Numbered from the stretch's first letter, positions 2,916-32,337 are shown. The stretch is 64,000 nt of DNA from a virus (IMGVR_UViG_2974496990_000001:47606-111605); one strand, 5' to 3'. Translations and numbers: made by a program. Notes: generated by a model from the letters alone, not told the origin.

Positions 2916-2943
2916 TTTGTATCTCCATTGTTGGTGTAGGAGC

Positions 2944-2973
2944 ACTATAACATGCCTCTACACCATTGTAAAC
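2944..2973 (-). promoter_or_regulatory. Early promoter
   Basis: GTTTACA-N17-TATAGT. Confidence 0.85.
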
Positions 2974-3161
2974 TACTTCGTGTTAATGATGTAGGTTAAC
3001 CAGAAAGGCCAGAACAGGATAATCAAAATGTTCTTTGGCAAACGTTGCATTGCCGTCTTACCTTTAACATATCCTGAAGTCACAACCGCCGTCAGGATTC
3101 CTGAAACCATCCAGGCCATAGGAGCCCATACACAAAGTAAAGCCATCGCTAGAGGAGTCAT
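2973..3161 (-). CDS. Small two-TM membrane protein (WP motif)
   Basis: Hydrophobic 62 aa, ILFWPFW. Confidence 0.7.
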   Translation of the reverse strand: MTPLAMALLCVWAPMAWMVSGILTAVVTSGYVKGKTAMQRLPKNILIILFWPFWLTYIINTK

Positions 3162-3334
3162 AGATTACCCTTGTTTTCGTGATATAAAATCCATACGGGC
3201 CAGGCAAGAATGCAGACCAATGTTTTAAACATATTGCTTCGCTTTACTTTAATCCCTGTAATCCAAATACATGAAGCACCAACGAACATCCATGATATAG
3301 CGCCGACAATATTAGCTAACAGAGCTGGTTCCAT
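3158..3334 (-). CDS. Small two-TM membrane protein (58 aa, not in the ORF track)
   Basis: Translated by hand as MEPALLANIV...ILAWPVWILYHENKGNL; TAATG and ATGA overlaps with both neighbours. Confidence 0.7.
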   Translation of the reverse strand: MEPALLANIVGAISWMFVGASCIWITGIKVKRSNMFKTLVCILAWPVWILYHENKGNL

Positions 3335-3681
3335 TAGTAGTAAGTCCTTTCATCATACTCGCCACCAAACCAGGCACTCTGAGGAGCTTTAGGCTGTTGT
3401 GACTTTTTAAATTCGGCACGAGCAATATGAGTAGCCATACTGAAGATGCCTGCGGCTTGAATCTGTTCACGATCCATTGTGATAAGACCTTTGACCTTTG
3501 CGTGCAGAATCACACGCTTACGAGTACCAATCATGCCAGCTGGGAACATACGCATCTGATGATATTGAACGTTCATATACTGACTAAACTTTGCAACGGA
3601 ACGGCACATTGTACGTTTGAACTCTTCACCTGCTTTGTGAAGGTCCCATTCTAAACGAGTTACAGGAGTCATATTAATCAC
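3334..3681 (-). CDS. Hypothetical protein
   Basis: 115-aa ORF, tightly packed in the operon. Confidence 0.75.
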   Translation of the reverse strand: MINMTPVTRLEWDLHKAGEEFKRTMCRSVAKFSQYMNVQYHQMRMFPAGMIGTRKRVILHAKVKGLITMDREQIQAAGIFSMATHIARAEFKKSQQPKAPQSAWFGGEYDERTYY

Positions 3682-3865
3682 CCATTAATGCTTCAACATC
3701 AGAACGGTAGATATTTGCTTCAGCAACTTCTTCGCCATCAAAAGAGGCTTTGATAGAAAGTGTACCAAACAAACTATCATAATCAACAGAAAGCTCGAGC
3801 TCTTCACGAAGAACACGTTTCACTTCGAGCTGAATAAGCTCTTTAATTTGTTCTACAGTAATCAT
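3674..3865 (-). CDS. Hypothetical protein
   Basis: 63-aa acidic ORF, ATGA overlap. Confidence 0.7.
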   Translation of the reverse strand: MITVEQIKELIQLEVKRVLREELELSVDYDSLFGTLSIKASFDGEEVAEANIYRSDVEALMGD

Positions 3866-4365
3866 TGATCGTCACCATTGTACATTTCTTCTTCATCGTA
3901 AACTTCAGGCTTACGTTCCATGATATAGTCATACGGGTCATCAATGTCCATACGTTGCCAGAATGTACCAAGTTGGATATTCTTAGGAGCATTGCTTTTA
4001 GAACCGGTGCAACGACCGATGTCACGACGTGAATACCGATGGTGTCCATTTTCATCCATAATGGTTTCATACGTCGTACGGCCCATGTTTTCAAGGTCTT
4101 TATATTTGACCATCTTGACCGTTTTGCCTTCCAGAGTTTCGTATGTCGCACCCGGAAGAAGCAGAGTTGGGTTACCGTCCAGTGAGTGAACCATCACAAT
4201 AACATCTTCGATGTTTTCGGCCGGATAAGCGATACCTACATTAACACCATGCTGATAAACCGCTTGGTATTGGTTTTCAGCAGAAATAACGGTCTTACGG
4301 AATTTATTGTCCCAAACACCATCAGTGAAGCGTTTGTATTTCAGTTCATAGCGAATCAGTTTCAT
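3862..4365 (-). CDS. Hypothetical protein
   Basis: Start moved to MKLIRY (GAGG SD). Confidence 0.7.
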   Translation of the reverse strand: MKLIRYELKYKRFTDGVWDNKFRKTVISAENQYQAVYQHGVNVGIAYPAENIEDVIVMVHSLDGNPTLLLPGATYETLEGKTVKMVKYKDLENMGRTTYETIMDENGHHRYSRRDIGRCTGSKSNAPKNIQLGTFWQRMDIDDPYDYIMERKPEVYDEEEMYNGDDQ

Positions 4366-4375
4366 AATATTTTCC

Positions 4376-4537
4376 TCAGATTTTGTGGACAGTGTTATCG
4401 CGTTTGTAGATATCAATCAACATCTGGCTTGGCTCTTCATAAGTCCAGGTGTCATAGGCTTTTACCGCAGAAATTGCAATCATAGCTATTGCAAGAATCT
4501 TAACCAGTTCATCAAACACGCTTTTTAAAAATTTCAT
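4376..4537 (-). CDS. Small single-TM protein (53 aa, not in the ORF track)
   Basis: MKFLKSVFDELVKILAIAMIAISAVKAY..., GGAG SD, first gene after an early promoter. Confidence 0.7.
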   Translation of the reverse strand: MKFLKSVFDELVKILAIAMIAISAVKAYDTWTYEEPSQMLIDIYKRDNTVHKI

Positions 4538-4562
4538 TTTGTTTCTCCATTTTGGTAGGAAG

Positions 4563-4592
4563 ACTATAACATGCCTTCCTACCGTTGTAAAC
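4563..4592 (-). promoter_or_regulatory. Early promoter
   Basis: GTTTACA-N17-TATAGT. Confidence 0.85.
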
Positions 4593-4593
4593 C

Positions 4594-5574
4594 TTATTTC
4601 AGAAGAGTTACTTCAGCAATCTCTTCCCAACCATTTGCATCGGTAGCGACGAAGTCAGCCAGATACAACGCTGTACGTAAGGAAACATTACGTAATTTAG
4701 TAACATTAGCCTTCATCCAGTTGAGTGCCATGGACGTCTGAGCGTCGCTTAAACCACGTTTCTGCATCATGTTGGTGTTCAAAATCACGTCTTCAACACG
4801 AATCATGATTTCTTCGTTTGAGTGAACACCCAGGTCCAGATAAACTGAACGTGATACAAGAGCATGAAGGTGTGGAGCAAGTTTAGAACCACGTTCTAAT
4901 TCTTTATCGATATCAACGTTAGTGATGAAAACGATAGTACCTTCGAACTCGAATTCTTTATCGATGTTTTTGTCATCGAGGTAAGAAGAAGCAGTGCTCC
5001 AGCAAACTTTACGAGTTTCGCCTGTATCGAGTGCTGCTTTCAGGAGGTTAAGCATATCCATATCAGAGAATACGTCAACATCATCAATAAGCAGAACGCT
5101 GTTTGCATCACGGTTGTTCCAAAGCTGCTCATAAAGACCGATACCTGAGATTTTACCGTTGATGCTTTTATAAACGATTTCACCATATTCATGTGCAGTT
5201 TTCAGAGCTTTATCCAGGCTGAAAGTCTTACCAATACCTGCAGCACCAGAGATGATTAATGAACGAATGTTGCCAGAGATGATACCTTTGGTCATCATGT
5301 TCATAACTGTGAAGCGTTTGTTGATACGCTGTTTCATTTCCTCGACTGATTCAACTCTAACCAGTGGAGAAACCTCCATACCTTCCATTTCGATATCAGT
5401 TTTGAACACCCATACACCACGTTCTTTGCCATCAACTTGGATGAACACTTTACCATCACCAAGGTGTGCTTCATGAGCAGGAACAACATCTGGGAACCAA
5501 GTCTTGGTTGCAACGAATTTGCCAGAGATGTCGTTACCGCGGAAAGTACCTTTGTTGATTTGAACGTTGAACAT
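4594..5574 (-). CDS. nrdC.10: AAA+ ATPase, NrdC.10-like
   Basis: Walker A GAAGIGKT, Walker B LLIDDVD; size and position match T4 nrdC.10. Confidence 0.8.
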   Translation of the reverse strand: MFNVQINKGTFRGNDISGKFVATKTWFPDVVPAHEAHLGDGKVFIQVDGKERGVWVFKTDIEMEGMEVSPLVRVESVEEMKQRINKRFTVMNMMTKGIISGNIRSLIISGAAGIGKTFSLDKALKTAHEYGEIVYKSINGKISGIGLYEQLWNNRDANSVLLIDDVDVFSDMDMLNLLKAALDTGETRKVCWSTASSYLDDKNIDKEFEFEGTIVFITNVDIDKELERGSKLAPHLHALVSRSVYLDLGVHSNEEIMIRVEDVILNTNMMQKRGLSDAQTSMALNWMKANVTKLRNVSLRTALYLADFVATDANGWEEIAEVTLLK

Positions 5575-5615
5575 TTTATTCTCCAGTGGTTTTCAGTATT
5601 TGTTTCGATGCAGCT

Positions 5616-5644
5616 ATAATAACATGTTGAAAGCAGATGTAAAC
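5616..5644 (-). promoter_or_regulatory. Early promoter
   Basis: GTTTAC...TATTAT. Confidence 0.75.
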
Positions 5645-5646
5645 AC

Positions 5647-6146: not shown

Positions 6147-6154
6147 TGGAAAGT

Positions 6155-9781: not shown

Positions 9782-9811
9782 TTCAATTTCCTCTCGTTTG
9801 TCTGTAGGAGT

Positions 9812-9841
9812 ATAATAACATGTCCTACAGACGTTGTAAAC
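9812..9841 (-). promoter_or_regulatory. Early promoter
   Basis: GTTTACA-N17-TATTAT. Confidence 0.85.
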
Positions 9842-10985: not shown

Positions 10986-11015
10986 TTCTTTACTCCAGTT
11001 CGTTAGTATAGGAAC

Positions 11016-11045
11016 ATCTTAACACAAACAAAACTGGATGTAAAC
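11016..11045 (-). promoter_or_regulatory. Early promoter
   Basis: GTTTACA-N17-TAAGAT. Confidence 0.75.
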
Positions 11046-11055
11046 ACTAAAACGA

Positions 11056-11083
11056 AAAAAGGGTCCCACCGAAGTAGGACCCT
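11056..11083 (-). terminator. Rho-independent terminator
   Basis: AGGGTCCTAC-TTCG-GTGGGACCC followed by a T run. Confidence 0.85.
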
Positions 11084-11087
11084 GTAA

Positions 11088-13879: not shown

Positions 13880-14223
13880 TTAGAATTCAATCCACGGTTA
13901 TAAGAATCGACTAGTCTGTCAACCATTGATTCACAGACCGATTTATATTTTTCATCTGAAGGAATACATTCAGTAGTTAAAAGGCGGTCTTCGTAACGTT
14001 TAGATAATGTCCCTTCTCTAAAACGAGAACGGGAATCCATTTGACCATCTTTATACGCAACTATGACCTGGCTACTGAATTCGCTTATGCATTGTGTATT
14101 CTTAGGTGCGCAATAATCTTTAGCAGTTCTGTTCGCGTAGTCAATAATTTCTGACATATCGGTTGATGCTGAAACTCCCAAACTGAGTGTTAACCCCAAA
14201 GCTAAAGTTATCTGCTTTAACAT
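13876..14223 (-). CDS. vs: Valyl-tRNA synthetase modifier Vs
   Basis: YANRTAKDYC...MVDRLVDSYNRGL matches T4 Vs. Confidence 0.88.
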   Translation of the reverse strand: MLKQITLALGLTLSLGVSASTDMSEIIDYANRTAKDYCAPKNTQCISEFSSQVIVAYKDGQMDSRSRFREGTLSKRYEDRLLTTECIPSDEKYKSVCESMVDRLVDSYNRGLNSK

Positions 14224-14775
14224 TTATTCCACCGTTTGATGTAACATTTTGCGTGATTTTAGATAATTAGCTTTTTCAAGAACTTGTGATGCATATTTGT
14301 TACCTGCTTTCACATTCCATCCTGCGTTGTATGAAGAAATAGCCTTTCTCATATCACCTTTGTGCACGTTTAACCAGTAAGATAATTCGATATAAGCCCA
14401 GGAAGCGCTATTAGAGCGTTTCTTGACCATTCTGATTATCTCTTTGTCTGACATGTTCCATCCAACCTGGTTGACCCTGTTACGTAGGGTTGGCAGGTAA
14501 TTTTGGAACATACCGTATGCATGATGTTTCTGTTTTTGCATACCTGTATTTAAGCCAGCTGATGATTCTTGCCAAACCAAGGCAGCCATGATATATCCCA
14601 AACCATTATTGTCATAACGGCTTTCGTGCTCTTTGAACTTACCCGACTTCTGGTATTGTTCACCAAAAGCATACGCATAATGTAAATTATCGAGTTGTTC
14701 ATTACTGAAAGTAGGCTCTACGCTATGGGCAGACATACTTGCTGTCAATAGTAAGGCAGCTAATACTTTTTTCAT
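14224..14775 (-). CDS. vs.1: Vs.1, lytic transglycosylase (SLT)-like secreted protein
   Basis: Signal peptide, WQESSAG, YGMFQ, AISSYNAG. Confidence 0.88.
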   Translation of the reverse strand: MKKVLAALLLTASMSAHSVEPTFSNEQLDNLHYAYAFGEQYQKSGKFKEHESRYDNNGLGYIMAALVWQESSAGLNTGMQKQKHHAYGMFQNYLPTLRNRVNQVGWNMSDKEIIRMVKKRSNSASWAYIELSYWLNVHKGDMRKAISSYNAGWNVKAGNKYASQVLEKANYLKSRKMLHQTVE

Positions 14776-14785
14776 GAATTTTCCT

Positions 14786-15244
14786 TTAAATTAAATCGAT
14801 TACCTTTGTGCTGATTTTTCCTTCAAGACGACGATTGTTAATAAAAGCCATACGGCAGCACAGAGATGGCAGGCGTCCAGGAGTTGGACGATCTACTGTC
14901 ATTCCTAGCCATAAATTACGGTCTGTAATTTCCAGACGTAATGGACGATACTCTACACCTTCCACTTTGTCATCTTCGACATCAGGCAAGGCTGGGAGTT
15001 TGAGGAACTCTACAACGGTAGTGACATGGTTGTGGAGCAATTTGAACAGAGTAAAGACGTATTGCTCATCGATTTCACGTTGGATAGCACGGTCCAAGAG
15101 GTGTGGGCTGTACTTTACAAAAAAGCGTTCAACGCCATTTGCAGCACAAGATGTAGCAATTGTTTTGTTGATTTCTGCAAACTCGGTCTCAAAGACACGA
15201 CGCAGTTTGTTACGACGAATGTAAACGCTAGAATCAATAGACAT
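14786..15244 (-). CDS. regB: Site-specific endoribonuclease RegB
   Basis: IRRNKLRR...HLLDRAIQREIDE...RLEITD.NLWLG matches T4 RegB. Confidence 0.93.
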   Translation of the reverse strand: MSIDSSVYIRRNKLRRVFETEFAEINKTIATSCAANGVERFFVKYSPHLLDRAIQREIDEQYVFTLFKLLHNHVTTVVEFLKLPALPDVEDDKVEGVEYRPLRLEITDRNLWLGMTVDRPTPGRLPSLCCRMAFINNRRLEGKISTKVIDLI

Positions 15245-15271
15245 TTTTATCTCCTTTTAGTGTGTAAAGTG

Positions 15272-15301
15272 ATAGTAACACAACTAAAAGGAGATGTAAA
15301 C
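15272..15301 (-). promoter_or_regulatory. Early promoter of regB
   Basis: GTTTACA-N17-TACTAT. Confidence 0.85.
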
Positions 15302-15303
15302 AC

Positions 15304-15558
15304 TTAAGGATAGAACGGAGTCAAAGACCAAGATTCTTTAGAAACTTTGTCGGCGAAAGCCATCATTTCTTCGATTTGACGCAGACGTTGGTCCGCATAA
15401 TCTTCTTCACCTTCTTCCTTACATGCTTCAAGGTCTTCTTCGAGATATTTCAAGTACTCGTTACAAATCTTGTTGACCTTTTCTTGAAAGTCCATCAGAC
15501 CCGCTACAGTGCTCATCAGTATTTCTCTTCTGGCTGGAAAACTGCACGGCATGCCCAC
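15304..15558 (-). CDS. Acidic hypothetical protein (vs.3 position)
   Basis: 84-aa ORF; true start may be the internal MSTVAG. Confidence 0.65.
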   Translation of the reverse strand: MGMPCSFPARREILMSTVAGLMDFQEKVNKICNEYLKYLEEDLEACKEEGEEDYADQRLRQIEEMMAFADKVSKESWSLTPFYP

Positions 15559-17541: not shown

Positions 17542-17571
17542 TTTAGTAGTCTCCATGTTTTGTTGAAGACT

Positions 17572-17600: not shown

Positions 17601-17601
17601 C

Positions 17602-17889: not shown

Positions 17890-17897
17890 TTTGTTCC

Positions 17898-18657: not shown

Positions 18658-18660
18658 AGG

Positions 18661-18690
18661 ACCTCCTATCTATTGATAGGAGTATTTATC
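18661..18690 (-). promoter_or_regulatory. SD-sequestering hairpin and late-promoter variant of gene e
   Basis: Minus strand GATAAATA CTCCTATC-AATA-GATAGGAG GT. Confidence 0.75.
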
Positions 18691-19661: not shown

Positions 19662-20362
19662 CAGCCTTCCATTGGGAACTCAAGATAAACCTGAGCGTTC
19701 ACACGAATTTCGTTGGTAATCTTTTTGACTCGGTCTGTATTACGAGAGACTCGACCGAACCAGCGCCAACCGTTAAGAACAGCTTTCGAACCAGTGTGCC
19801 ACGTCGCATGGTTAAATTCAAGCAAAGTACGGTCTGGGGCTTCCCACTTTTGGAGAGTTCCTTCTTCAATGTGACGAAGTACTTCCGGGTGCCAATGCTT
19901 ATAAATTGTTTTTCCTTCAGGCACTTCAGAGAACTCAGCCACCCCGGTAGCAAAATGAGTAGGACACACGTCAGCATTAACGAGCCCAATAATATGTTCA
20001 GACAAGTAACGAGGGTTATCATAATCAGGTTGTCCGGCTGTAAGGAAATGTTGTCCTGCTGGAATATCAGGGCGTGGTACGTCGTCATGGTGATAACCAG
20101 GGATAGCAGGGTACCAGCCAGGCATCAGCATATGGATACGTGTGTCAATTACGACTTCTTCTTTGTTCCAGTCATCAGGCAGATTCATGATGAAGCTACG
20201 AGTGATAGGACCGCCATTATCAAAAGCGAAAGCCAATGAACTATTGAAGAACATTGTTTCGTTCTTGATTTTATCGTTATCAATACGACCAGCAAAACTA
20301 CCTACAGCACGAGCTTGAGAATCAAAAGTTTTTGGACCATTCATAATATTTTTCTCACTCAA
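19658..20362 (-). CDS. Putative 2OG-Fe(II) dioxygenase-fold protein
   Basis: GYHHDD (HxD), distal WH, and WRWFGR pattern. Confidence 0.55.
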   Translation of the reverse strand: MSEKNIMNGPKTFDSQARAVGSFAGRIDNDKIKNETMFFNSSLAFAFDNGGPITRSFIMNLPDDWNKEEVVIDTRIHMLMPGWYPAIPGYHHDDVPRPDIPAGQHFLTAGQPDYDNPRYLSEHIIGLVNADVCPTHFATGVAEFSEVPEGKTIYKHWHPEVLRHIEEGTLQKWEAPDRTLLEFNHATWHTGSKAVLNGWRWFGRVSRNTDRVKKITNEIRVNAQVYLEFPMEGW

Positions 20363-20552
20363 GAGTTATCAGACAGATTTCGATTTGACCTGTGGCCATG
20401 TTCAGACATTGAACATCATTCAACCTTAAGCCTACTTGGCCTGTATTAGTAATGCCGAGTTCAGTTTTCTCACCTTTAACGGTTGTTTCAGTGTAAGTAA
20501 CATCACAGCCTACAAGAGCCATTGCAATAAAAATCATAGCTAAAGTTTTCAT
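20355..20552 (-). CDS. Small lipoprotein
   Basis: MKTLAMIFIAMALVG-C lipobox. Confidence 0.75.
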   Translation of the reverse strand: MKTLAMIFIAMALVGCDVTYTETTVKGEKTELGITNTGQVGLRLNDVQCLNMATGQIEICLITLE

Positions 20553-20576
20553 TTCATCTCCTTGGTTGGTAGGAAG

Positions 20577-20606
20577 ACTATAACATGCCTTCCTACCATT
20601 GTAAAC
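20577..20606 (-). promoter_or_regulatory. Early promoter
   Basis: GTTTACA-N17-TATAGT. Confidence 0.85.
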
Positions 20607-21028
20607 TACTTGCGAACTTGACTTGCGAAGCCTACTGCGATTTCACGTTCTCTGTTCTTAGCGTTTATCAATTGGACTTTCTTATCTTTACGTCCTTGAA
20701 GCCATTTCTTAAGAATACTGTTTGAAGCAATTTCACCAGTTGTTTTACTTAAACGTCCTTGACGGTACAAACGAACATAACGTGCCCAACGAGTCCAGAA
20801 ATAGAACTGTTGTCCTGCAGCAGAAGCCCAGGTGAAGTACCATACCTGAGAAGAGCCTTGGAACCAAGGACCAAAGATGCTTAATCCCCAATAAGTGAAC
20901 ATTGCTGTCATAAATGCACATGCAAAACTAATCATAACCGTAGCAAAGATACAGAAATCTTCACCAGACCAGGATGCATTTTTCCACCACAAATACAGTT
21001 GCTTAATAATCATATTATTTTCCTTCAA
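20606..21028 (-). CDS. Membrane protein
   Basis: Two hydrophobic segments, basic C-terminus. Confidence 0.75.
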   Translation of the reverse strand: MKENNMIIKQLYLWWKNASWSGEDFCIFATVMISFACAFMTAMFTYWGLSIFGPWFQGSSQVWYFTWASAAGQQFYFWTRWARYVRLYRQGRLSKTTGEIASNSILKKWLQGRKDKKVQLINAKNREREIAVGFASQVRK

Positions 21029-21944
21029 ATGGCAGAATCATGTGCTCGTTTTTCTTGAAGCGGTCGATGTAGTCATTCACACCTAGAGTTTTATACATAT
21101 GAACTACTTTGTGGTAGTTTTCCCAAGCGTATTCACGGAACCAACCACTCGTAATCGACGTACAGACCTTCTCTAAGGCCATCATGAAAGAATGCTCTGA
21201 AGATACATTCTGGAAGTTATTAGGAACCTGGGAACGTTCCAGGGCTAACACACATGTCTCTTCGTAGACACCTGCCAGTTTAATAGCTTCAGGCAGCGCT
21301 TCGAACTTTTCACGGCTTGTCATGACTTCAGAACCGTCCTTCATGTAGAAGGTATAAGCAGGCCGGTCTGCCAGAGCTACAGCACGGTGGATTGAATCAT
21401 GGTCCAATGTGTAGATGGTATCGTTAAAGAACGTCGATTTATTCACGTCCAGTTTCGGATGGTTATAGCTCAACGTTTCTTTCTGGCGTTCAGTGACAAT
21501 CAGCTCAAGAGGAGTTGAAAGTTTAACGCCTTTGTTACGAAGGAAACGAATGTGATGCATTGTCTTACGGAAGAACGGATTGTTCTTTTTGAAACGATGA
21601 GAAAGCTTAATAGCCAGGCACATCTCTGGAGTGGCCCAATGGAAGCCTGAAAGATTATCTTTCTTGCATTTAAGATCGGCATAATTCAAAAGCATCGCAT
21701 TCGAATTTGTGTTGTAGCCTTCTTTAACGATATATGCTTCAAAGTAAGTCTCGCGGCCGTTGTGCATACATTTGAAAGCTCGAACGTCTTCGTTTTCTAC
21801 TTCAACTTCAGCACCGAACATACGACCTTTGAAAGCTTCCCAATCAGGTTCTTCTGCGATGAAGTCCCAATCTGAATTTTTAATATCGTCGTAGCCAATC
21901 AAACCGTGGTGCTCAAGAGCACGTGAACCGATAACTAACATCAT
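21015..21944 (-). CDS. Nucleotidyltransferase-like protein
   Basis: N-terminal VIGSRAL...SDWD (GS...DxD); C-terminal helical domain with DHDSIH. Confidence 0.6.
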   Translation of the reverse strand: MMLVIGSRALEHHGLIGYDDIKNSDWDFIAEEPDWEAFKGRMFGAEVEVENEDVRAFKCMHNGRETYFEAYIVKEGYNTNSNAMLLNYADLKCKKDNLSGFHWATPEMCLAIKLSHRFKKNNPFFRKTMHHIRFLRNKGVKLSTPLELIVTERQKETLSYNHPKLDVNKSTFFNDTIYTLDHDSIHRAVALADRPAYTFYMKDGSEVMTSREKFEALPEAIKLAGVYEETCVLALERSQVPNNFQNVSSEHSFMMALEKVCTSITSGWFREYAWENYHKVVHMYKTLGVNDYIDRFKKNEHMILPFEGK

Positions 21945-21973
21945 AATATTTTCCTCTCTGTTTGTGTAGGAGC

Positions 21974-22003
21974 ATCATAACATGGTTCCTACACGTTGTA
22001 AAC
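21974..22003 (-). promoter_or_regulatory. Early promoter
   Basis: GTTTACA-N17-TATGAT. Confidence 0.8.
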
Positions 22004-22005
22004 AC

Positions 22006-22236
22006 TTAAATTTCTTGACAGTATGTGTTGTGGGTTTCGATGTAATCTTCAAGCGAAGAACACACTAACGGGTCAATAGTACCGCCAACATCTTCGTTAT
22101 AAGGGTCGATGCCACAGTGGGCATCTTCGAAGCGCACGCCATAGTCAGACTTCTTGTACGTGATACCGAAGATTTGTTCAAACTTCTTACGAGAGATTTT
22201 GTAGCTCTCTCCGTCACCATTAGGATGATACAGCAT
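22006..22236 (-). CDS. Small acidic hypothetical protein
   Basis: Start moved to MLYHP (GAGG SD). Confidence 0.7.
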   Translation of the reverse strand: MLYHPNGDGESYKISRKKFEQIFGITYKKSDYGVRFEDAHCGIDPYNEDVGGTIDPLVCSSLEDYIETHNTYCQEI

Positions 22237-22243
22237 TTTTACC

Positions 22244-22444
22244 TCAACACTGGTAAGATGAAGAAGCCCAACCATTTACGGTGATACTGTTCCCATCGAC
22301 ACGAATACCGTTATGGAAATCAATACCACTACGGTCTGTGAAGTACATAGTTACATCTTCACGTTCTTCGGCGACGATTTGAAACAGGTTTTCTAATGCT
22401 GCCTGAGCAGTACGAACAGCGCAATCTAATTCACGACGAGACAT
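22244..22444 (-). CDS. WxSSS..C family small protein 1
   Basis: Start MSRRELD (AGGA SD); ends GWASSSYQC. Confidence 0.8.
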   Translation of the reverse strand: MSRRELDCAVRTAQAALENLFQIVAEEREDVTMYFTDRSGIDFHNGIRVDGNSITVNGWASSSYQC

Positions 22445-22721
22445 TTTGATTCCTTCTACACATTTGGATGAAAGCATCGAGTTCATACATTTTAAATTCA
22501 GGTGAATCGACGCTGATAATTTTAGTCCATAAACAACGTATTGGGTCCCAACTCATATCAGGCCAAGTAAACGGGTCTGGTTGCTGTCGATGATACACAG
22601 CTACAGCACGCCTGATATAATCGGTTCCATAAATCGAATGAGCTACATGCGATAATGCTATACATGTTGTCCCATCAAGTCCATCTACTTCAAGATAGCC
22701 ATCGACAATACGAAGTTTCAT
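22431..22721 (-). CDS. Hypothetical protein
   Basis: 96 aa, GGAG SD after an early promoter. Confidence 0.75.
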   Translation of the reverse strand: MKLRIVDGYLEVDGLDGTTCIALSHVAHSIYGTDYIRRAVAVYHRQQPDPFTWPDMSWDPIRCLWTKIISVDSPEFKMYELDAFIQMCRRNQNVSS

Positions 22722-22750
22722 TTTCTACTCCTTTCTAAACAAGTACGGGT

Positions 22751-22780
22751 ATCTTATCACTAAGACACCCGTTTGTAAAC
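22751..22780 (-). promoter_or_regulatory. Early promoter
   Basis: GTTTACA-N17-TAAGAT. Confidence 0.8.
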
Positions 22781-22783
22781 TGC

Positions 22784-23011
22784 TTAGCAACTCTGCATAG
22801 AAGAACTATACCAGAAGCCTTGGTCGTGAGGCAAGTAGTTCTCATCACGAATCCATTTGTAGTCCTCGAATTCACTAGAACTCACAGGAATGTATTCTTC
22901 ATTACCGACAGTGAAGATTTCACCTGTAGCGTCGGCTATGTCTACGCCTTTACTGATAAGGTCACGAATGGCCTTTTCAACATTAGCTACAGTTTCAATT
23001 TTAATAGTCAT
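22784..23011 (-). CDS. WxSSS..C family small protein 2
   Basis: Start MTIKIE (AGGA SD); ends FWYSSSMQSC. Confidence 0.8.
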   Translation of the reverse strand: MTIKIETVANVEKAIRDLISKGVDIADATGEIFTVGNEEYIPVSSSEFEDYKWIRDENYLPHDQGFWYSSSMQSC

Positions 23012-23019
23012 ATGTTTCC

Positions 23020-23250
23020 TTAGCAAGAAGAAGGTTGCCAGATGGAGCCATCGGCTTCAACATTGAATTCACGACCAGTTTCTTCGCCATAACAAGAAGA
23101 GTTATTCCAGTCATCAAAACGCATGCTACCATCAGAGGTATCAAATTCAAAACCAAAAGAATCGGCTGCTGCGAGTTCGCTTACTTTGTTAAACAGAACG
23201 GCCAGTTCTTTAGCCGCTTGTTCGAGTTCAATATTACCAGATACAGACAT
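23020..23250 (-). CDS. WxSSS..C family small protein 3
   Basis: Ends IWQPSSC; internal WNNSSC. Confidence 0.8.
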   Translation of the reverse strand: MSVSGNIELEQAAKELAVLFNKVSELAAADSFGFEFDTSDGSMRFDDWNNSSCYGEETGREFNVEADGSIWQPSSC

Positions 23251-23259
23251 AATAATTCC

Positions 23260-23538
23260 TTAACATTCCATAGAAGAAGATACCCAGCCACCAGATTCGA
23301 GGCTAGTATAATATGAGTGTTGATTAACGACAGCCCAATTAGGATGCCCCATTTCGGTTTCACGTTCAAGGTCTTTTTTCAAAGCGCCGGGCGAATAATA
23401 TGTTCCACCCATACCATACGCTGGTGACATTTCAAAACTTAGACCATATTTGTCGGCTACTTTCTTTGCATGGTTAATAGCTTCGCAAATGGCTGCCTCG
23501 GCAGCAGCCATAGTCAGTTCGGGTTTATGTTTAGACAT
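23260..23538 (-). CDS. WxSSS..C family small protein 4
   Basis: Start MSKHK (TAATG overlap); ends GWVSSSMEC. Confidence 0.8.
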   Translation of the reverse strand: MSKHKPELTMAAAEAAICEAINHAKKVADKYGLSFEMSPAYGMGGTYYSPGALKKDLERETEMGHPNWAVVNQHSYYTSLESGGWVSSSMEC

Positions 23539-23858
23539 TAACACATCTCGCTTGAAGAAATCCAGACGCCTTCAGTAAGATTACCATTACCATCAAGGTC
23601 GTAACCATTACATGAACAAGCGTATTCAATATAATATTCAGATGCATTACTGCCTTTAGGATAATAGGTTTCGCCATTACCGTAATCGCCACGGCTCATA
23701 GAGATGCCGTATTTGTCCATCAGTTGTTCGGCACGTGCCTCATCAACCGGTTCAAGCAGAGCTTCAATGGCCTTACGAGCAGAAGCGGCATCAGTTACCA
23801 GAGGAATACGGGTTTCGATTACTTCCATTGCTTCAGCTTTGTTTTTAGGATTTTTCAT
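23538..23858 (-). CDS. WxSSS..C family small protein 5
   Basis: Ends VWISSSEMC. Confidence 0.8.
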   Translation of the reverse strand: MKNPKNKAEAMEVIETRIPLVTDAASARKAIEALLEPVDEARAEQLMDKYGISMSRGDYGNGETYYPKGSNASEYYIEYACSCNGYDLDGNGNLTEGVWISSSEMC

Positions 23859-24217
23859 TTTCTTCTCACATTTCGAATAAAAAGTTCAGTGGATTTACGC
23901 TCATTCACAAGGTCACGAGCAGCACGTTCGGCAGTCCATTCTTTAAGATGTTTCTTCCACGGCAAATATTCTTTAAAGAAATATTGCACACGTTCACATT
24001 GATAGGTCATATACCAAGTTAATGGAAATCCACAAATCAAATACTTCGTTACTTCAATAACCCAGGGAGCTACTTCATCTTTCATGCCTTTATCAAAGAT
24101 AATCATATCACTAAAACATGCAGCAAGTGCTAATGTGGCAGAGACTAAGGCTGCAATTAGCATAGAGCCAAATTTGTCTAAGTTACGACGGAACATTGGT
24201 TTCATTTTATAACTCAT
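23855..24217 (-). CDS. Membrane protein (e.3/e.4-like)
   Basis: Two TM segments; C-terminal TELFIRNVRRK. Confidence 0.7.
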   Translation of the reverse strand: MSYKMKPMFRRNLDKFGSMLIAALVSATLALAACFSDMIIFDKGMKDEVAPWVIEVTKYLICGFPLTWYMTYQCERVQYFFKEYLPWKKHLKEWTAERAARDLVNERKSTELFIRNVRRK

Positions 24218-25573: not shown

Positions 25574-25628
25574 TGTTATTTCCTTTCATGTGATTAAGAA
25601 TTAAATTATATCCCGTTTGTGTAGGAGC

Positions 25629-25658
25629 ATACTAACACAACTCCTACACGTTGTAAAC
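25629..25658 (-). promoter_or_regulatory. Early promoter
   Basis: GTTTACA-N17-TAGTAT. Confidence 0.8.
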
Positions 25659-25908: not shown

Positions 25909-26109
25909 TCACATACGGTTGCCGATTACCAGCTGAGCCGTAGGCCAGTTAGTAACAGAATACTCGATTACATCTTTAACATCTTTAGCTTCAACAATAT
26001 CGGTCACATGATACTCATGGTCACCTGTGTTCAGGATTGCACGATAATGAGTAACTTCACCGAAATCGTTAGTGATTTCATGAATTGTAGAAGTATTGAA
26101 AGTTGTCAT
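25909..26109 (-). CDS. Hypothetical protein
   Basis: 66 aa, GGAG SD. Confidence 0.75.
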   Translation of the reverse strand: MTTFNTSTIHEITNDFGEVTHYRAILNTGDHEYHVTDIVEAKDVKDVIEYSVTNWPTAQLVIGNRM

Positions 26110-26150
26110 TTTATTCTCCAGTGGTTTTCATCATTTGTTTCGATGAAGCT

Positions 26151-26179
26151 ATAATAACACAACCACCGGAGAAGTAAAC
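26151..26179 (-). promoter_or_regulatory. Early promoter
   Basis: GTTTAC...TATTAT. Confidence 0.8.
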
Positions 26180-27104: not shown

Positions 27105-27134
27105 TTTGTTTCTCCAGTTCGTTAGTGTAGGAAC

Positions 27135-27164: not shown

Positions 27165-27182
27165 ACCTGCCCCTAAATACCC

Positions 27183-27214
27183 GAAAGGGTCCCTCGGCAA
27201 AGAAGGACCCTTTC
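27183..27214 (-). terminator. Terminator at the end of the tRNA operon
   Basis: GAAAGGGTCC...GGACCCTTTC stem. Confidence 0.75.
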
Positions 27215-28209: not shown

Positions 28210-28285
28210 TGGCGGACCTAACGAGATTCGAACTCGTGACGCTCCCGTGACAGGGGAGTATTTTAACCGCTGAAACTATAGGTCC
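28210..28285 (-). tRNA. tRNA-Asp(GTC)
   Basis: Full cloverleaf, anticodon GTC, encoded CCA. Confidence 0.95.
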
Positions 28286-28456
28286 GGATTGCGCCCATCT
28301 TGTTGTGGTATTAGGCCATACCTTTCGGCTGGGTACTTCCAGGGAACAGAGCTTGGACGACTTAAGGGTGTACATCCATCTGGGCTTAGAGTCGTCTTAC
28401 AGACACGAGTATTATTCCAACTCTACCACATCACCAGCTTGGTCCCTCTTGTTTTC
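28286..28456 (-). ncRNA. Candidate pseudoknotted RNA between tRNAs
   Basis: Stems GACGAC/GTCGTC, AGGGAC/GTTCCCT and crossing TGTGGTA/TACCACA. Confidence 0.5.
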
Positions 28457-28505
28457 TGGCAGGCGCTTGAGGAATCCACCGCTCTACCAACTGAGCTAAG
28501 CACCT
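28457..28505 (-). pseudogene. tRNA with a 27-nt internal deletion (probably derived from tRNA-Trp)
   Basis: AGGTGCT acceptor, intact D-arm, GTGGATT-CCTC, AGCGCCT-G-CCA; 49 nt; anticodon 3' arm and most of the T-arm missing. Confidence 0.75.
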
Positions 28506-28508
28506 AAT

Positions 28509-28584
28509 TGGGGTGACCTATGGGACTTGAACCCATGACTACAAGAATCACAATCTTGAATTCTACCAACTGAATTAAGGCCAC
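28509..28584 (-). tRNA. tRNA-His(GTG)
   Basis: Cloverleaf, anticodon GTG, C73, CCA. Confidence 0.93.
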
Positions 28585-28617
28585 AGCAATGTTCACTCAA
28601 ATGAACGAACATTAATC

Positions 28618-28693
28618 TGGCGGATGTGCACGGATTCGAACCGCGGACCAATCACTTAACGGGCGACCGCTCTACCAACTGAGCTACACATCC
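28618..28693 (-). tRNA. tRNA-Asn(GTT)
   Basis: Cloverleaf, loop CC-GTT-AA, CCA. Confidence 0.9.
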
Positions 28694-28694
28694 T

Positions 28695-29222
28695 TTATCT
28701 TGCAGATTTTATTTTGTTTTCTTTAAATAGGTCGATAATAGAGTTAACATCGCCTTTAATCCACTCACCATCAGCATTTAAAGCTTTATGGAAAGAAAAC
28801 TCTTCTTCAAAACGTTTATCACTGAAATAGTAACATTCTAATTTATAATCACGTAAAGGGCAGTAGGATTGATAAGTGTTCAACCTATCATAAACATCCA
28901 CTGTAGAACCTATTTTATACCATCCTTCAAAAGCAGGATTAGTTACGCAATAAATGAAACCTTCTTTAATACCTTTAGAAGAATTACCATTTCTGAAATA
29001 CTTTACACGCAACAACGATAACTTGGTGAAGTTCACTTGTCGTGAAATCAATTTATCAGACTTTCGTGAAGCAGTGTCTGTATACTGGAGCTTAAAATTA
29101 GGATGAATATATTTGAAATAAATGTATTTAGCGAACTCAGTATTTATATCAAAATCAATCCCACTAATACCTTCTTCATTAAGATAAGCACTATATTGAT
29201 TAATTATTTTGGCCTTATCCAT
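28695..29222 (-). CDS. GIY-YIG (T5orf172-type) homing endonuclease, SegB-like position
   Basis: GFIYCVTN...WYKIG...DRL...GEW; AT-rich; inserted between tRNAs. Confidence 0.8.
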   Translation of the reverse strand: MDKAKIINQYSAYLNEEGISGIDFDINTEFAKYIYFKYIHPNFKLQYTDTASRKSDKLISRQVNFTKLSLLRVKYFRNGNSSKGIKEGFIYCVTNPAFEGWYKIGSTVDVYDRLNTYQSYCPLRDYKLECYYFSDKRFEEEFSFHKALNADGEWIKGDVNSIIDLFKENKIKSAR

Positions 29223-29238
29223 ATTCTTCTCATAAATT

Positions 29239-29316
29239 TGGTAGGACGTGAGGGATTTGAACCCATCGACATCTCGATTAAAAGTCGAGTGCTCTAACCA
29301 GCTGAGCTAACGTCCT
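29239..29316 (-). tRNA. tRNA-Lys(TTT)
   Basis: Cloverleaf, anticodon TTT, CCA; one extra nt in the T-stem region. Confidence 0.92.
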
Positions 29317-29328
29317 TCTTAATTCTAT

Positions 29329-29565
29329 TTATTCAGTATATCTCTTAAACTGTAAAGCAAAATCTTCATCAACTTTAGTTAAGAAGTGTCCTGCCTTAAA
29401 TCGTTTAGAGCTACCTTCAACTTCTACACCGTATCCGTTCTTACCAAGGACTCGACCAACTCGCATTTCGCCAGGGTCGCCCATTGAATTACAACGAACA
29501 CCGTACAGAACAAAATCATTTTCGAATACCGGAGCATTTTTCCGGTCAGTAATTAATTCTATCAT
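29329..29565 (-). CDS. Small SH3/KOW-like hypothetical protein
   Basis: 78-aa ORF; start site uncertain because it overlaps the putative Pm. Confidence 0.6.
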   Translation of the reverse strand: MIELITDRKNAPVFENDFVLYGVRCNSMGDPGEMRVGRVLGKNGYGVEVEGSSKRFKAGHFLTKVDEDFALQFKRYTE

Positions 29566-29582
29566 ATTAACCTTAAAGCATA
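29556..29582 (-). promoter_or_regulatory. Putative middle promoter
   Basis: TATGCTTTA-N12-TAGAAT. Confidence 0.55.
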
Positions 29583-30028
29583 TTACGTTTTAAGTTTTCA
29601 CGAACTCGATAAAGATTTGAACAGAATTCCTGTTCAGTCAAAACAGTTTCGTTCTTTTTCGACTTACCCATCGAGTGAGTTAATGTAGCGTTCTGCGTAG
29701 CCAGGAGCGCTCTCTGGAACCCTTCATTCAAGGCTAATTGATTATATGCTCGTTCGATAAGAAGCGTATAGGCGTCACTCTGGCGTTGCATAGGCACACC
29801 TTTCCAGTATAATGTCTGGAGTCGCCACCAATTCTTTTTCTTACCTTTGAACTTAGCTTTCTTACCAACTAGAGTACAAACATGTTCCTGCATTTCTACT
29901 GAAGAAAATTTCAGTGATTGCAAAAAGCCTTCCATCGAAGCACATTGTACACCGTCAATTTCAAAAGCATGAGGTGCAAAGTTACTTAATGCAGATGAAG
30001 GATAACCTGCACCAGAACCGATGTCCAT
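29573..30028 (-). CDS. NADAR-family (gp30.3-like) ADP-ribosylhydrolase
   Basis: ALSNF..HAFEIDG...SMEGFLQSLK...LYWKG...THSMG...LTEQEF, similar to recalled T4 gp30.3. Confidence 0.8.
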   Translation of the reverse strand: MDIGSGAGYPSSALSNFAPHAFEIDGVQCASMEGFLQSLKFSSVEMQEHVCTLVGKKAKFKGKKKNWWRLQTLYWKGVPMQRQSDAYTLLIERAYNQLALNEGFQRALLATQNATLTHSMGKSKKNETVLTEQEFCSNLYRVRENLKRNML

Positions 30029-30249
30029 TATTCATATTCCTTTTCAAGAAGGAAATAGTAGATATCATCATGGTCGGTGATAACGTTTTCAAACCAATGC
30101 TCGCGTTCTTTTACAAGAGTCGGTCCTGAAGTCCAATTCCCACATACAAAATATTGCACGCCTTCACGGTCTTGGAAGAATACGGCTTCAGAATGTCCGC
30201 CGTCTTTCCATTCGATAATTGCATGTCCTAATGGATATTTTTTAATCAT
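30028..30249 (-). CDS. Hypothetical protein
   Basis: 73 aa, GAGG SD. Confidence 0.75.
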   Translation of the reverse strand: MIKKYPLGHAIIEWKDGGHSEAVFFQDREGVQYFVCGNWTSGPTLVKEREHWFENVITDHDDIYYFLLEKEYE

Positions 30250-30269
30250 ATTTTCCTCACATTAAAAGT

Positions 30270-30379
30270 TCACAGCGGGGTGGATTCGAACCACCAATAT
30301 TAAGTCACTCATACACCAAGCATGCTAGGGCACTTACCCCGGACGGAATCGAACCGCATCTACAATACCTATCGCCGTG
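30270..30379 (-). ncRNA. tRNA-mimic RNA with two T-loop hairpins
   Basis: Acceptor CACGGCG/CGCTGTG, terminal T-arm GGTGG-TTCGAAT-CCACC, internal GCGG-TTCGATT-CCGT; no anticodon arm. Confidence 0.6.
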
Positions 30380-30381
30380 TC

Positions 30382-30458
30382 TGGTGGCCCCATCCGGACT
30401 TGAACCGGAAACCTACCAGTTATGAGCCGGGCGCTCTAACCAATTGAGCTATAGGGCC
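30382..30458 (-). tRNA. tRNA with CAT anticodon (Met, or more likely Ile2)
   Basis: Cloverleaf, CAT anticodon, GGCCCT acceptor, A73, CCA. Confidence 0.9.
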
Positions 30459-30919
30459 TGAATAATTTGTTTACCACGTTTAAATCTGAATGTGCTTGTC
30501 TGTGAATGACAATTCGGACATAATATCCTCAAATTAGAATACAAATGGTTTTTAGAATTACCATCAATATGGTCTAATTCACACTCTATAGGCTTAGAAT
30601 TCCATTCAGAAATTCCGCATTCTTCACATTCGTTCTTTTTAAGACCTTCAGAATACAATCGCTTTTTAAGTTTATACGATTGATATTGTGGATGAAGACC
30701 TTTCAAAATTTCATCAAGAGGTATTGTCTGTTTTGAATACTCAGACTTATCTCTTTTTATACCAGTTCGTCCTTTATTAGGTCGGTATAACCCATAATGA
30801 ACGGCATGTTGTTTAAATGTTCGGTGGTGGCATCCTATTAAAGAACAAGCTGCAGCCATAGAACAAGTAGAGTTTATAGCATGCTCTATTTCTTCTTTAC
30901 TATAAGTTAGTGTTTTCAT
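30449..30919 (-). CDS. HNH homing endonuclease with N-terminal HTH
   Basis: CEECG...ELDHIDG...NLRILCPNCHS. Confidence 0.9.
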   Translation of the reverse strand: MKTLTYSKEEIEHAINSTCSMAAACSLIGCHHRTFKQHAVHYGLYRPNKGRTGIKRDKSEYSKQTIPLDEILKGLHPQYQSYKLKKRLYSEGLKKNECEECGISEWNSKPIECELDHIDGNSKNHLYSNLRILCPNCHSQTSTFRFKRGKQIIQAL

Positions 30920-30923
30920 AATT

Positions 30924-31012
30924 TGGTACGGGTGACGAGATTCGAACTCGTAAGAGCTTAAGCCCTATGGCATTTTAAGTGCCATGCGTACTGCCAATAC
31001 CGCCACACCCGC
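30924..31012 (-). tRNA. tRNA-Leu(TAA)
   Basis: Class II cloverleaf with long variable arm, anticodon TAA, CCA. Confidence 0.92.
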
Positions 31013-31022
31013 GTTCTATTTC

Positions 31023-31215
31023 GAAAGCTCTCACTGGATATAACCCACTTGATTATATCTCTTACGTTTGTCTCGACTTCACAGATCGCGTATTCCATTT
31101 GTCGTCTAGAGAACTTTCTGAATAGAGGCCTCAAATTTTTAGAGAGGGTATAGGATTAGCTAGGCTATCCTTGAGGCCAGATTGGAGTCATAACTCCAGG
31201 TAGTAATAATACTAC
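31023..31215 (-). ncRNA. Hairpin-rich leader of the tRNA array (one or two candidate RNAs)
   Basis: Five visible stems, no ORF. Confidence 0.4.
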
Positions 31216-31216
31216 A

Positions 31217-31519
31217 TTAACGTAAAAGCATATTAATGTAAGTGTGTTGAATTCGTTTCAATTTCAGCTTATTTTCAAAGATGTCATATTCACGAACCTG
31301 CTTACCATCTTCAGAAATAAAGAAGGAAAGGTTCACACTATTGAATTCCCAACGAATGTCTTTAAGATGCACATCCGTGGAGCTACGCCCAATATCAACA
31401 CGTTCGACTTCATATAAGTATTCAGAGCCATTCTGCTCAATATGGCGTTTTGAAGCTTCTTGGTCAGGCAGATAACCATTTTCAGGCTTAGTAATCTGAG
31501 CAAATAATTTAATCATCAA
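31217..31519 (-). CDS. Hypothetical protein (trna.2 position)
   Basis: 100-aa ORF. Confidence 0.7.
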   Translation of the reverse strand: MMIKLFAQITKPENGYLPDQEASKRHIEQNGSEYLYEVERVDIGRSSTDVHLKDIRWEFNSVNLSFFISEDGKQVREYDIFENKLKLKRIQHTYINMLLR

Positions 31520-31905
31520 TAGTAACCTTTATCAACAATAACATGAGTATTGGCATTAACAATCTGCCACCAATCAAACTTACCAGAGCCGTAGCGAGAT
31601 TTATTACGATTTGATTCAATTACTTCACGTAATTCATCTTCTGTTGCTGCTTTATGTTTCAGGTCTTCATATCCGCCAGAAGGATAATAGTTATCACCGG
31701 CAAATAAAAGGAAATTAACCTGTTTAGATTTGTGCATTTCAAGGTCGATTACATTGCCATCAGGCCCTACGATATCGACATAACTGTAAGGTGTATTTTG
31801 AGCAATGTCCACTGCTTCAAGCAGGGAATCAACACTCGTGCCTATTTGGCAATCCCACTTTGCAGAAGGATTTGCCGATGTATCACCATAAATTTTATAG
31901 CTCAT
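31516..31905 (-). CDS. Hypothetical protein (trna.3-like)
   Basis: FLLFAGDNYYPSGG...FDWWQI. Confidence 0.7.
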   Translation of the reverse strand: MSYKIYGDTSANPSAKWDCQIGTSVDSLLEAVDIAQNTPYSYVDIVGPDGNVIDLEMHKSKQVNFLLFAGDNYYPSGGYEDLKHKAATEDELREVIESNRNKSRYGSGKFDWWQIVNANTHVIVDKGYY

Positions 31906-32086
31906 CACAGGCCCCACTATAAATTGTCGTGAATGATGAATCCATTACTTCGTAACGGTCATAACAATCGGACGCGCCATTTTCTCTGGCGTACTCTAAA
32001 GCTTGTTCAGGCGAGTCAAAAGTATCGATAAGGTCTCGAGACCCACCATTAGGATAGTAACGAGACCACATGAATAATGCGTACAT
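31895..32086 (-). CDS. Hypothetical protein, paralogue of the trna.3 C-domain
   Basis: YALF...YYPNGG..DL; GAGG SD. Confidence 0.7.
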   Translation of the reverse strand: MYALFMWSRYYPNGGSRDLIDTFDSPEQALEYARENGASDCYDRYEVMDSSFTTIYSGACDEL

Positions 32087-32093
32087 ATTTTCC

Positions 32094-32273
32094 TCACTTT
32101 GCGATATGGTGCATAACACCTGCAATGCCACCGACTACAGCACAAACTGCCAGAGAAACCATGTTCTCAGTAGTTGTCAGCAGACCGGTCATGAATCCAG
32201 CAAACATGCTGAAAGAGAAAGCGGTTACTGCTACTAAGGCTGCTACATTACGGATTGCTTCTGCACGTTTCAT
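32094..32273 (-). CDS. trna.4: Small membrane protein, Trna.4-like
   Basis: MKRAEAIRNVA...FSFSMF.GF..GLLTT.EN resembles T4 trna.4. Confidence 0.75.
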   Translation of the reverse strand: MKRAEAIRNVAALVAVTAFSFSMFAGFMTGLLTTTENMVSLAVCAVVGGIAGVMHHIAK

Positions 32274-32308
32274 TTTATTCTCCAAGTGTTTTTCGTTTTG
32301 ATGTGTCT

Positions 32309-32337
32309 ATAGTATCACGTTCCCTGGAGAAGTAAAC
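32309..32337 (-). promoter_or_regulatory. Early promoter
   Basis: GTTTAC...TACTAT. Confidence 0.8.

Follow-up and report, generated by a model that had tools for sequence, protein, structure and literature searches.

The inverted repeats that surround the early promoters of a T4-like phage probably function as RNA hairpins, built into compact T4-like promoter cassettes and divided into two gene-specific kinds, one that masks the Shine-Dalgarno sequence (SD) or start codon of the next gene and one that flanks the -10 element. The promoters lie in a 64,000-nucleotide stretch of DNA (the window) that comprises bases 47606-111605 of the 177,643-bp genome IMGVR_UViG_2974496990_000001. Judged from the sequence, roughly two in three strong early promoters appear to be enclosed in hairpins that could form only on RNA started upstream.

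The closest record is Klebsiella phage vB_KM5a1-KLB31 (95% identity), followed by Enterobacter phage CIP9 (~82% identity), both of the genus Kanagawavirus in the Tevenvirinae. A search of sequencing runs for window positions 14000-23999 gave no RNA run, only small shares in wastewater metagenome contigs. The early genes of window positions 1-33000 are carried by the minus strand; the arms of each repeat are read on this strand, which is sense for the early genes, and all promoters described below lie on it. GTTTAC-N17/18-TAnnnT sites followed by an SD and an ATG number 15 in the window and 36 in the genome, all on the minus strand and usually with TGn directly 5' of the -10. They are predicted to be sigma70-type early promoters, like those of the published early promoters with stem-loops (PeSLs) of phages phi1 and RB49. 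The cassette order is stop codon, -35, spacer, -10, short leader, SD and ATG. The stop of the upstream open reading frame (ORF) falls at the -35 or a few bases away and the leader is ~25 nt long, hence the intergenic region consists of the promoter and its leader and nothing more. With the start site placed by the usual spacing, ~7 nt past the -10, the 5' arm of each repeat either falls within the spacer or stops near +1. Because this arm would be upstream of the start, the hairpin is expected only on upstream-started RNA: the own transcript of an internal promoter would lack the 5' arm and remain without the hairpin, and read-through RNA would form it.

The initial annotation had claimed that most of the 15 window promoters carry such a repeat, often pairing with the SD. 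Each of its 11 arm pairs was re-checked, and all exist on the minus strand, nine of them as perfect Watson-Crick stems of 7-13 bp at the coordinates first reported. The repeat reported at 2932-2940/2955-2965 is present with a narrower perfect core of 8 bp (2932-2939/2958-2965). The pair 22745-22756/22761-22772 is likewise present, although with 11 Watson-Crick pairs and one G·U pair it is not fully perfect, and the pair given as 26115-26127/26161-26173 exists with a coordinate one base off, the real 3' arm being 26114-26126 (12 Watson-Crick pairs and one G·U pair). When each cassette was folded as RNA over the interval -35 to ATG and compared with 200 dinucleotide shuffles, 12 of the 15 window cassettes gave z-scores of -1.8 or lower, and for nine of these 12 none of the shuffles folded equally well. 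Promoters P5644, P6146 and P27164 showed no structure beyond that of their 200 shuffles. Thus most window promoters are indeed structured, and the stem takes in the SD at five of the 15. As in PeSLs, the arms occupy the spacer and sequence that overlaps or closely follows the -10.

The repeats are far more frequent than in shuffled promoters, a comparison that the initial annotation had proposed. Of the 36 genome promoters, 17 have an 18-nt spacer that is perfectly complementary to some part of the -10-to-ATG stretch over a run of at least 7 bp. Shuffled spacers gave an expectation of 0.95 (maximum 6 in 1000), and spacers swapped between promoters gave 3.8 (maximum 9). Runs of at least 9 bp occurred in 10 of the 36, as compared with 0.06 for shuffled and 1.04 for swapped spacers. 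The excess of self-pairing over swapped-spacer pairing indicates that the arms of each promoter match one another better than they match those of its paralogues. The two designs are enriched separately, with 16 observed and 0.6 expected for stems that flank the -10, and eight observed and 1.6 expected for stems that cover the SD or AUG. Nine further genomes were compared, of which RB49, with TTGACA promoters, was judged by eye outside the enrichment scan. The remaining eight, T4 and seven other Tevenvirinae, show the same enrichment. Promoters with runs of at least 7 bp make up 17/38 in KLB31, 13/36 in CIP9, 7/26 in Serratia phage X20 and 13/38 in T4 (1.3 expected, maximum 6). Within the T4 genome, 10-14-bp stems surround the -10 at 73939, 65799 and 57990, and denV (65413) and regB (62797) have anti-SD spacers; the SD/AUG-covering design is seen at 6/38 T4 promoters and at 8/36 promoters in this phage.

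Three geometries can be distinguished. In class A, the 5' arm begins 3-5 nt past the -35 and the 3' arm 1-5 nt past the -10, so that the -10 sits inside an 8-18-nt loop, and the stem mostly stops 4-7 nt short of the SD, which is left free. In class B, an anti-SD that starts at the first or second base past the -35 reaches over the entire promoter and leader to pair with the SD. Its loop measures 21-48 nt when taken between perfect Watson-Crick cores; loops in the window reach 36 nt. In class C, the SD and AUG are paired to the discriminator together with the 3' half of the -10. The window holds six class A promoters (P2973, P4592, P9841, P20606, P22003 and P25658) and the similar P22780, four of class B (P11045, P15301, P26179 and P32337) and one of class C (P17600).

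Orthologous promoters were located through the first 60 codons of the downstream gene in nine genomes, including this phage. The stem class largely follows the gene across genera, with unrelated arms. The regB promoter is of class B in 9/9 genomes, and its arms differ among Kanagawavirus (ATCTCCTTTTAGT/ACTAAAAGGAGAT in this phage), Winklervirus (ATCCTCATTTG/CAAATGAGGAT) and T4 (TTTTCCTCTTGACTG/CAGTTAAGAGGAGAA); in the regB consensus fold four pairs are altered on both sides. At denV the SD/AUG is masked in 9/9 genomes, as class B or C, by four unrelated arm pairs in two geometries: TAGTAGTCT/AGACTACTA, ATGATGTC/GACATCAT, (AT)CTCCGTTTG/CAAACGGAG(AT) and TCTCCTGTAG/CTACAGGAGA. A further gene is of class A in 9/9 genomes with three unrelated arm pairs, and the orthologues of stem-less promoters are stem-less too. 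Finer steps are also visible. In a second orthologue group, one pair passes through U-A, U·G and C-G forms and two more alternate between C-G and U-A, and close relatives differ by a single compensatory exchange (GGTGTAGA/TCTACACC vs GGTGTAGG/CCTACACC). The covariation that the initial annotation suggested looking for in related phages is therefore found, in regB, denV and further groups. Its statement that arm sequences vary without loss of pairing is borne out both by these orthologues and by the excess of self-pairing over cross-pairing. The corollary that the repeats are not products of simple copy ancestry is less clear for class A, in which six of the eight stems counted in the window share a GTAGGA/TCCTAC core; part of this class may have arisen by copying.

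The level at which selection acts can be read from the imperfect stems. Within 85 distinct stems of the nine genomes, positions that depart from Watson-Crick pairing but have pairs on either side comprise 18 G·U and 4 A·C when read on the sense strand (binomial p = 0.004), and a slid-register control yielded a ratio of 0.88, which means that base composition slightly favors A·C. Since pairing in DNA would give symmetry, the G·U excess points to selection on the early-sense RNA rather than on the DNA. Relative to the -35 and -10, the register of the stem shifts from promoter to promoter. Because of this variation, a promoter-anchored gapless alignment of six class A promoters yielded no consensus structure and no shared pairs, and per-sequence stems and permutation tests were used instead. 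The shifting register also makes an operator of fixed geometry less likely. A single conserved palindromic operator was considered and rejected, given that the arms are too diverse among promoters and orthologues and the register is not fixed.

These observations bear on the possibility that the repeats act as DNA, either as a cruciform, which the initial annotation had offered as an alternative, or as an operator for a dimeric protein whose binding would expose or block the -10, e.g., in early shut-off. The central position of the -10 in the class A repeats and the core shared by six window stems would suit such a mechanism, and the shut-off of T4 early promoters is incompletely understood (PMC3014915). 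Yet the G·U bias and the absence of common pairs speak against it, arm sequences bear no relation from one promoter or orthologue to the next (CCGGAAGTA, GCTGATTGAGTGT, TGGGTGTAAGG and the T4 arms), and loops of up to 48 nt are implausible for cruciform extrusion. Action at the DNA level is accordingly regarded as very improbable.

If the hairpins form on RNA, their predicted effect on ribosome access differs between the classes. Thermodynamic prediction of the probability that the segment from SD to AUG is unpaired, for 249 distinct promoters, gave 0.11 on read-through RNA and 0.79 on the own transcript for class C, and 0.43 and 0.86 for class B, with 0.59 for class B read-through RNA carrying a shuffled spacer. 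For class A the values are 0.77 on read-through RNA, 0.85 on the own transcript and 0.67 with a shuffled spacer, and for stem-less promoters 0.57, 0.82 and 0.58, respectively. The class A difference from the shuffled spacer has p = 1e-7, a value inflated by the non-independence of orthologous promoters. Hence class A is predicted to leave the SD exposed, more so than its shuffled counterparts or the stem-less promoters.

In T4, the genes e, soc, 49 and I-TevI have their SD and/or AUG in a helix of a long transcript, and the shorter RNA from an internal promoter is translatable (PMC3014915). The initial annotation applied this gene e logic across the early genes, such that read-through RNA would hide the SD and a gene would be translated only from its own promoter. 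The logic suits classes B and C, in which the SD/AUG lies in the stem and the 5' arm upstream of the presumed start: P11045, P15301, P17600, P26179 and P32337 share the geometry of the T4 genes, their SD is predicted to be hidden on read-through RNA, and the masking of regB and denV is kept in 9/9 genomes. Class A-type promoters do not share this geometry, and SD hiding fails as a general rule, as the class A SD is if anything slightly freed. By these predictions the earlier reading would be right for about one third of the structured promoters, with the opposite tendency in the majority class. The present cases also differ from the T4 genes in that the latter use a late promoter (TATAAATA) and pass from early silence to late translation. 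Here a GTTTAC/TAnnnT early promoter is embedded, the effect would be to confine translation to the gene's own early transcripts, and the masking design is widespread. The T4 reviews searched, including PMC3014915, describe no SD masking at early promoters, but late-promoter cases only. No description of regB or denV being masked by a hairpin that contains the early promoter was found in the literature searched, which did not extend to the older single-gene T4 literature.

The regB cassette P15301 (15242-15301) is one of the masking cases. Its 5' arm (15283-15295, ATCTCCTTTTAGT) directly follows the -35 and pairs over 13 bp with a 3' arm (15249-15261, ACTAAAAGGAGAT) that includes the SD, with the -10 (15272-15277) in the loop (z -7.51). 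The downstream ORF (14786-15244) matches a PHROG endoribonuclease family (E = 7e-72). The denV cassette P17600 (17539-17600; z -5.02) pairs 17564-17575 (TAGTAGTCTTCA) with 17544-17555 (TGGAGACTACTA) over an SD at 17551-17554, and its ORF (17125-17541) matches endonuclease V (E = 1e-60). In P11045 (10983-11045; z -3.72), the arms 11031-11038 (TCCAGTTT) and 10994-11001 (GAACTGGA) overlap the SD (10993-10996) by the 3' arm, and the predicted unpaired probability of SD to AUG is 0.02 on read-through RNA as compared with 0.74 on the own RNA. P26179 (26107-26179; z -5.04) has arms 26161-26173 (TTCTCCGGTGGTT) and 26114-26126 (AACCACTGGAGAA) and an SD at 26116-26119; its single G·U pair is on the sense strand. 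P32337 (32271-32337; z -2.79) has arms 32323-32331 (TTCTCCAGG) and 32278-32286 (CTTGGAGAA), the latter covering the SD at 32280-32283.

Of the three promoters with no hairpin, P5644 (5572-5644; z +1.86) and P6146 (6067-6146; z -0.56) each have a longest Watson-Crick run of 5 bp, and P27164 (27102-27164; z +0.36) retains the discriminator TTCCTACAC with no complementary spacer and has a terminator-like hairpin upstream. The leaders of P5644 and P26179 are paralogous, but P5644 lacks the anti-SD spacer, and its orthologues are likewise stem-less. The two leaders, at 5572-5621 and 26107-26156 on the minus strand, are near-identical (TATTATagctKcatcgaaacaaat...aaaaccactggagaataaaatg), with a complementary spacer in P26179 only, and form a natural pair for comparing a leader with and without such a spacer. 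An additional GTTTAC-N18-CATAAT site at 16855-16918 (minus strand), with an ORF downstream of a weak SD (gagaatctaaaaATG), is outside the 15 promoters counted both by the initial annotation and by the present filter, and has no obvious promoter-spanning stem.

Among the class A cassettes, P2973 spans 2913-2973 with its 5' untranslated region and folds with a minimum free energy of -18.9 (z -3.72; 0/200 shuffles as good). The -35 is at 2968-2973, the 5' arm at 2958-2965 (TGGTGTAG), the -10 (TATAGT) at 2944-2949, the 3' arm at 2932-2939 (CTACACCA), the SD at 2923-2926 and the ATG at 2913-2915. P4592 (4535-4592; z -4.92) has arms 4575-4583 (GGTAGGAAG) and 4554-4562 (CTTCCTACC), with the -10 at 4563-4568 and the SD at 4545-4548; the orthologue in Kosakonia phage 305 carries GATAGGAAG/CTTCCTATC instead, a compensatory exchange. 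P9841 (9779-9841; z -2.74) pairs 9823-9832 (GTCTGTAGGA) with 9800-9809 (TCCTACAGAC) around a -10 at 9812-9817 and has its SD at 9790-9793, and P20606 (20550-20606; z -4.51) pairs 20589-20598 (TGGTAGGAAG) with 20567-20576 (CTTCCTACCA). In P22003 (21942-22003; z -2.35), the arms 21987-21994 (GTGTAGGA) and 21964-21971 (TCCTACAC) are replaced by TAGGGTCA/TGACCCTA in the orthologues of CIP9, X20, IME523 and Virsaitis27. P25658 (25571-25658; z -1.80) has a long leader, with arms 25641-25649 (GTGTAGGAG) and 25619-25627 (CTCCTACAC), the SD 34 nt downstream and arms GATGGAAGCA/TGCTTCCATC in the X20 orthologue. The class A-like P22780 (22719-22780; z -4.78) forms a 12-bp stem with a 4-nt loop between 22761-22772 (ACGGGTGTCTTA) and 22745-22756 (TAAGATACCCGT); its -10 hexamer is within the 3' arm and the stem ends 12 nt short of the SD. 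A YTCCTACAC consensus is kept at the discriminator and start region of all class A promoters and of several stem-less ones, even without a complementary spacer (e.g., window 27126-27134 and 10999-11015). It is clade-specific, the T4 counterpart being acaactatca.

Class A is already within the published PeSL kind, and the arrangement as a whole is a variant of T4-type cassettes combined with T4 translational masking. According to Arbiol et al. 2010 (PMC2839356), the stem-loops of phi1 and RB49 early promoters lie mostly between the -35 and -10 or overlap the -10, a placement that matches class A; the authors interpreted them as terminators or attenuators and as sites of recombination. Comeau et al. 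2014 (PMC4122927) extend PeSLs to PST/T4 and nt-1/KVP40. Common to both sets are repeated intergenic cassettes of early promoter, stem-loop, SD and start codon among small genes without known function. The cassettes of this phage may also tend to lie near replacement boundaries between relatives. RB49, inspected by eye, displays the published forms, with GGGGATC...GATCCCC in the spacer or stems overlapping the -10. In contrast to the class A stems, with 8-18-nt loops that hold the -10 and no U tract, the published stems are GC-rich (GGGG...CCCC) with short loops, and in PST/T4 they are drawn upstream of the promoter (PMC4122927). Neither paper, in the sections consulted, describes spacer-to-SD pairing, gene-specific conservation of class or a sense-strand G·U bias. 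An Rfam scan of window positions 1-34000 brought only six tRNAs to the gathering score, and the hairpins match no known RNA family. The six tRNAs form a cluster amid the early genes at 28213-31012 (minus strand; 50-66 bits).

Following the PeSL authors, all the stem-loops might be attenuators or terminators for upstream RNA polymerase, the pairing with the SD being incidental. A phi1 promoter stem-loop cut lacZ expression as strongly as rrnB T1 (Arbiol et al., PMC2839356). Moreover, a canonical terminator is found upstream of 0/87 class A promoters and 21/165 other promoters in the nine genomes, as counted with a crude detector over non-independent orthologues; this exclusion could mean that class A stems are redundant with terminators, or that a class A stem would find no read-through RNA there to act on. 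Like intrinsic terminators, the repeats are stable intergenic hairpins. Genuine terminator-like structures, a GC-rich hairpin and a T run, stand just upstream of P11045, P27164 and P32337 (~11046-11085, 27165-27200 and 32338-32375, minus strand). The promoter-embedded hairpins differ from these: the 8 nt 3' of the class A stems are 48% A and 18% T, with at least four T in 4/87. With no U tract and with 8-18-nt loops, the class A stems are, on sequence grounds, not canonical terminators, and the class B loops are longer still. Finally, masking at regB and denV is kept through changes of geometry, which termination alone does not require. Attenuation as the whole explanation is therefore considered unlikely.

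A further alternative assigns the repeats no role in expression and regards them as by-products or substrates of cassette recombination (PeSL-type shuffling), or as selfish palindromes that move with the promoter. Cassettes with paralogous leaders are repeated in the window (P5644/P26179 and P11045/P27164). Boundaries of segments that do not align between genomes fall within 30 bp of a cassette in 15/91 cases for CIP9 and 11/84 for Kosakonia phage 305, as compared with ~2.5 for random positions drawn genome-wide without correction for intergenic location; by the same null, the closest relative gives 1/24 and 0.7. The excess for CIP9 and Kosakonia phage 305 is in line with the recombination role suggested for PeSLs. 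Window 17542-17898, which starts at the denV cassette and runs upstream, cannot be aligned to the 95%-identical KLB31 and looks like a cassette-bounded replacement. In KLB31 the denV promoter and leader differ, yet the start codon is still masked. Mere by-products, however, would not be expected to conserve a gene-specific stem class across genera with unrelated arms, to show compensatory changes with G·U intermediates and self-pairing above cross-pairing, or to carry the G·U bias that indicates selection on RNA. A role in recombination can coexist with RNA function, and recombination as the sole explanation is judged quite unlikely.

The evidence taken together favors RNA hairpins of two kinds. 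In classes B and C, the anti-SD past the -35, or the 3' half of the -10 with the discriminator, would pair with the SD/AUG of the next gene on read-through RNA, and the masked genes (regB, denV and some small ORFs) would be translated chiefly from their own early transcript. Once the early promoter is shut off, synthesis from a masked gene would end even if read-through RNA persists. RegB needs tight control, and its early promoter is shut off at 2-3 min (PMC3014915). In class A, the spacer would pair with the discriminator and the first transcribed bases, leaving the -10 in the loop and the SD free. This hairpin is most likely a local intercistronic structure on polycistronic RNA, where sequestration of the spacer and of the pyrimidine-rich, anti-SD-like discriminator (YTCCTAC) would insulate the downstream ribosome site; it may also serve as an attenuator or as a barrier against 3' decay. 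A role as an RNase III site was dismissed on general knowledge, since stems of 7-13 bp are too short.

Several points weigh against this interpretation. The start sites, the read-through RNA, its structure and the effects on translation, termination and decay are all deduced rather than observed, and the accessibility values are thermodynamic predictions for short fragments, with p-values inflated by the non-independence of orthologous promoters. The predicted insulation by class A is modest and partly trivial, as any local hairpin withdraws its own bases from pairing, and it reaches significance in the Kanagawavirus set alone, whose members are not independent. As the upstream promoters are early too, masking would bring an obvious benefit only if read-through RNA exists later. 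The strong termination by the phi1/RB49 stem-loop in the lacZ assay (PMC2839356) leaves room for a transcriptional role of class A. Finally, 2/27 orthologue groups mix classes A and B; the notion that the two are interchangeable as a rule was dropped, as the mixing is confined to these two groups.

The early promoters of T4 are among the best-studied bacterial promoters, and their spacers are usually taken as free sequence. In this phage, T4 and seven other Tevenvirinae, the spacer and discriminator appear instead to be under gene-specific selection to pair with downstream RNA. A bolder generalization, considered rather improbable, is that in T4-like phages the 18-base spacer of each early gene would be a gene-specific instruction for read-through RNA (mask, keep open as in class A by sequestering the discriminator, or nothing). 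It would amount to a second, RNA-level code preserved across genera by covariation, and to a built-in insulator that allows cassettes to be shuffled with their translation unaltered. For the nucleases RegB and DenV, translation would be tied to a short-lived promoter of their own, giving a brief pulse of synthesis controlled post-transcriptionally. In cassette-rich regions, the arrangement suggests how promoter-plus-gene modules stay functional after they are moved. For annotation and engineering, it implies that altering a spacer or deleting an upstream gene may shift the translation of the next gene.

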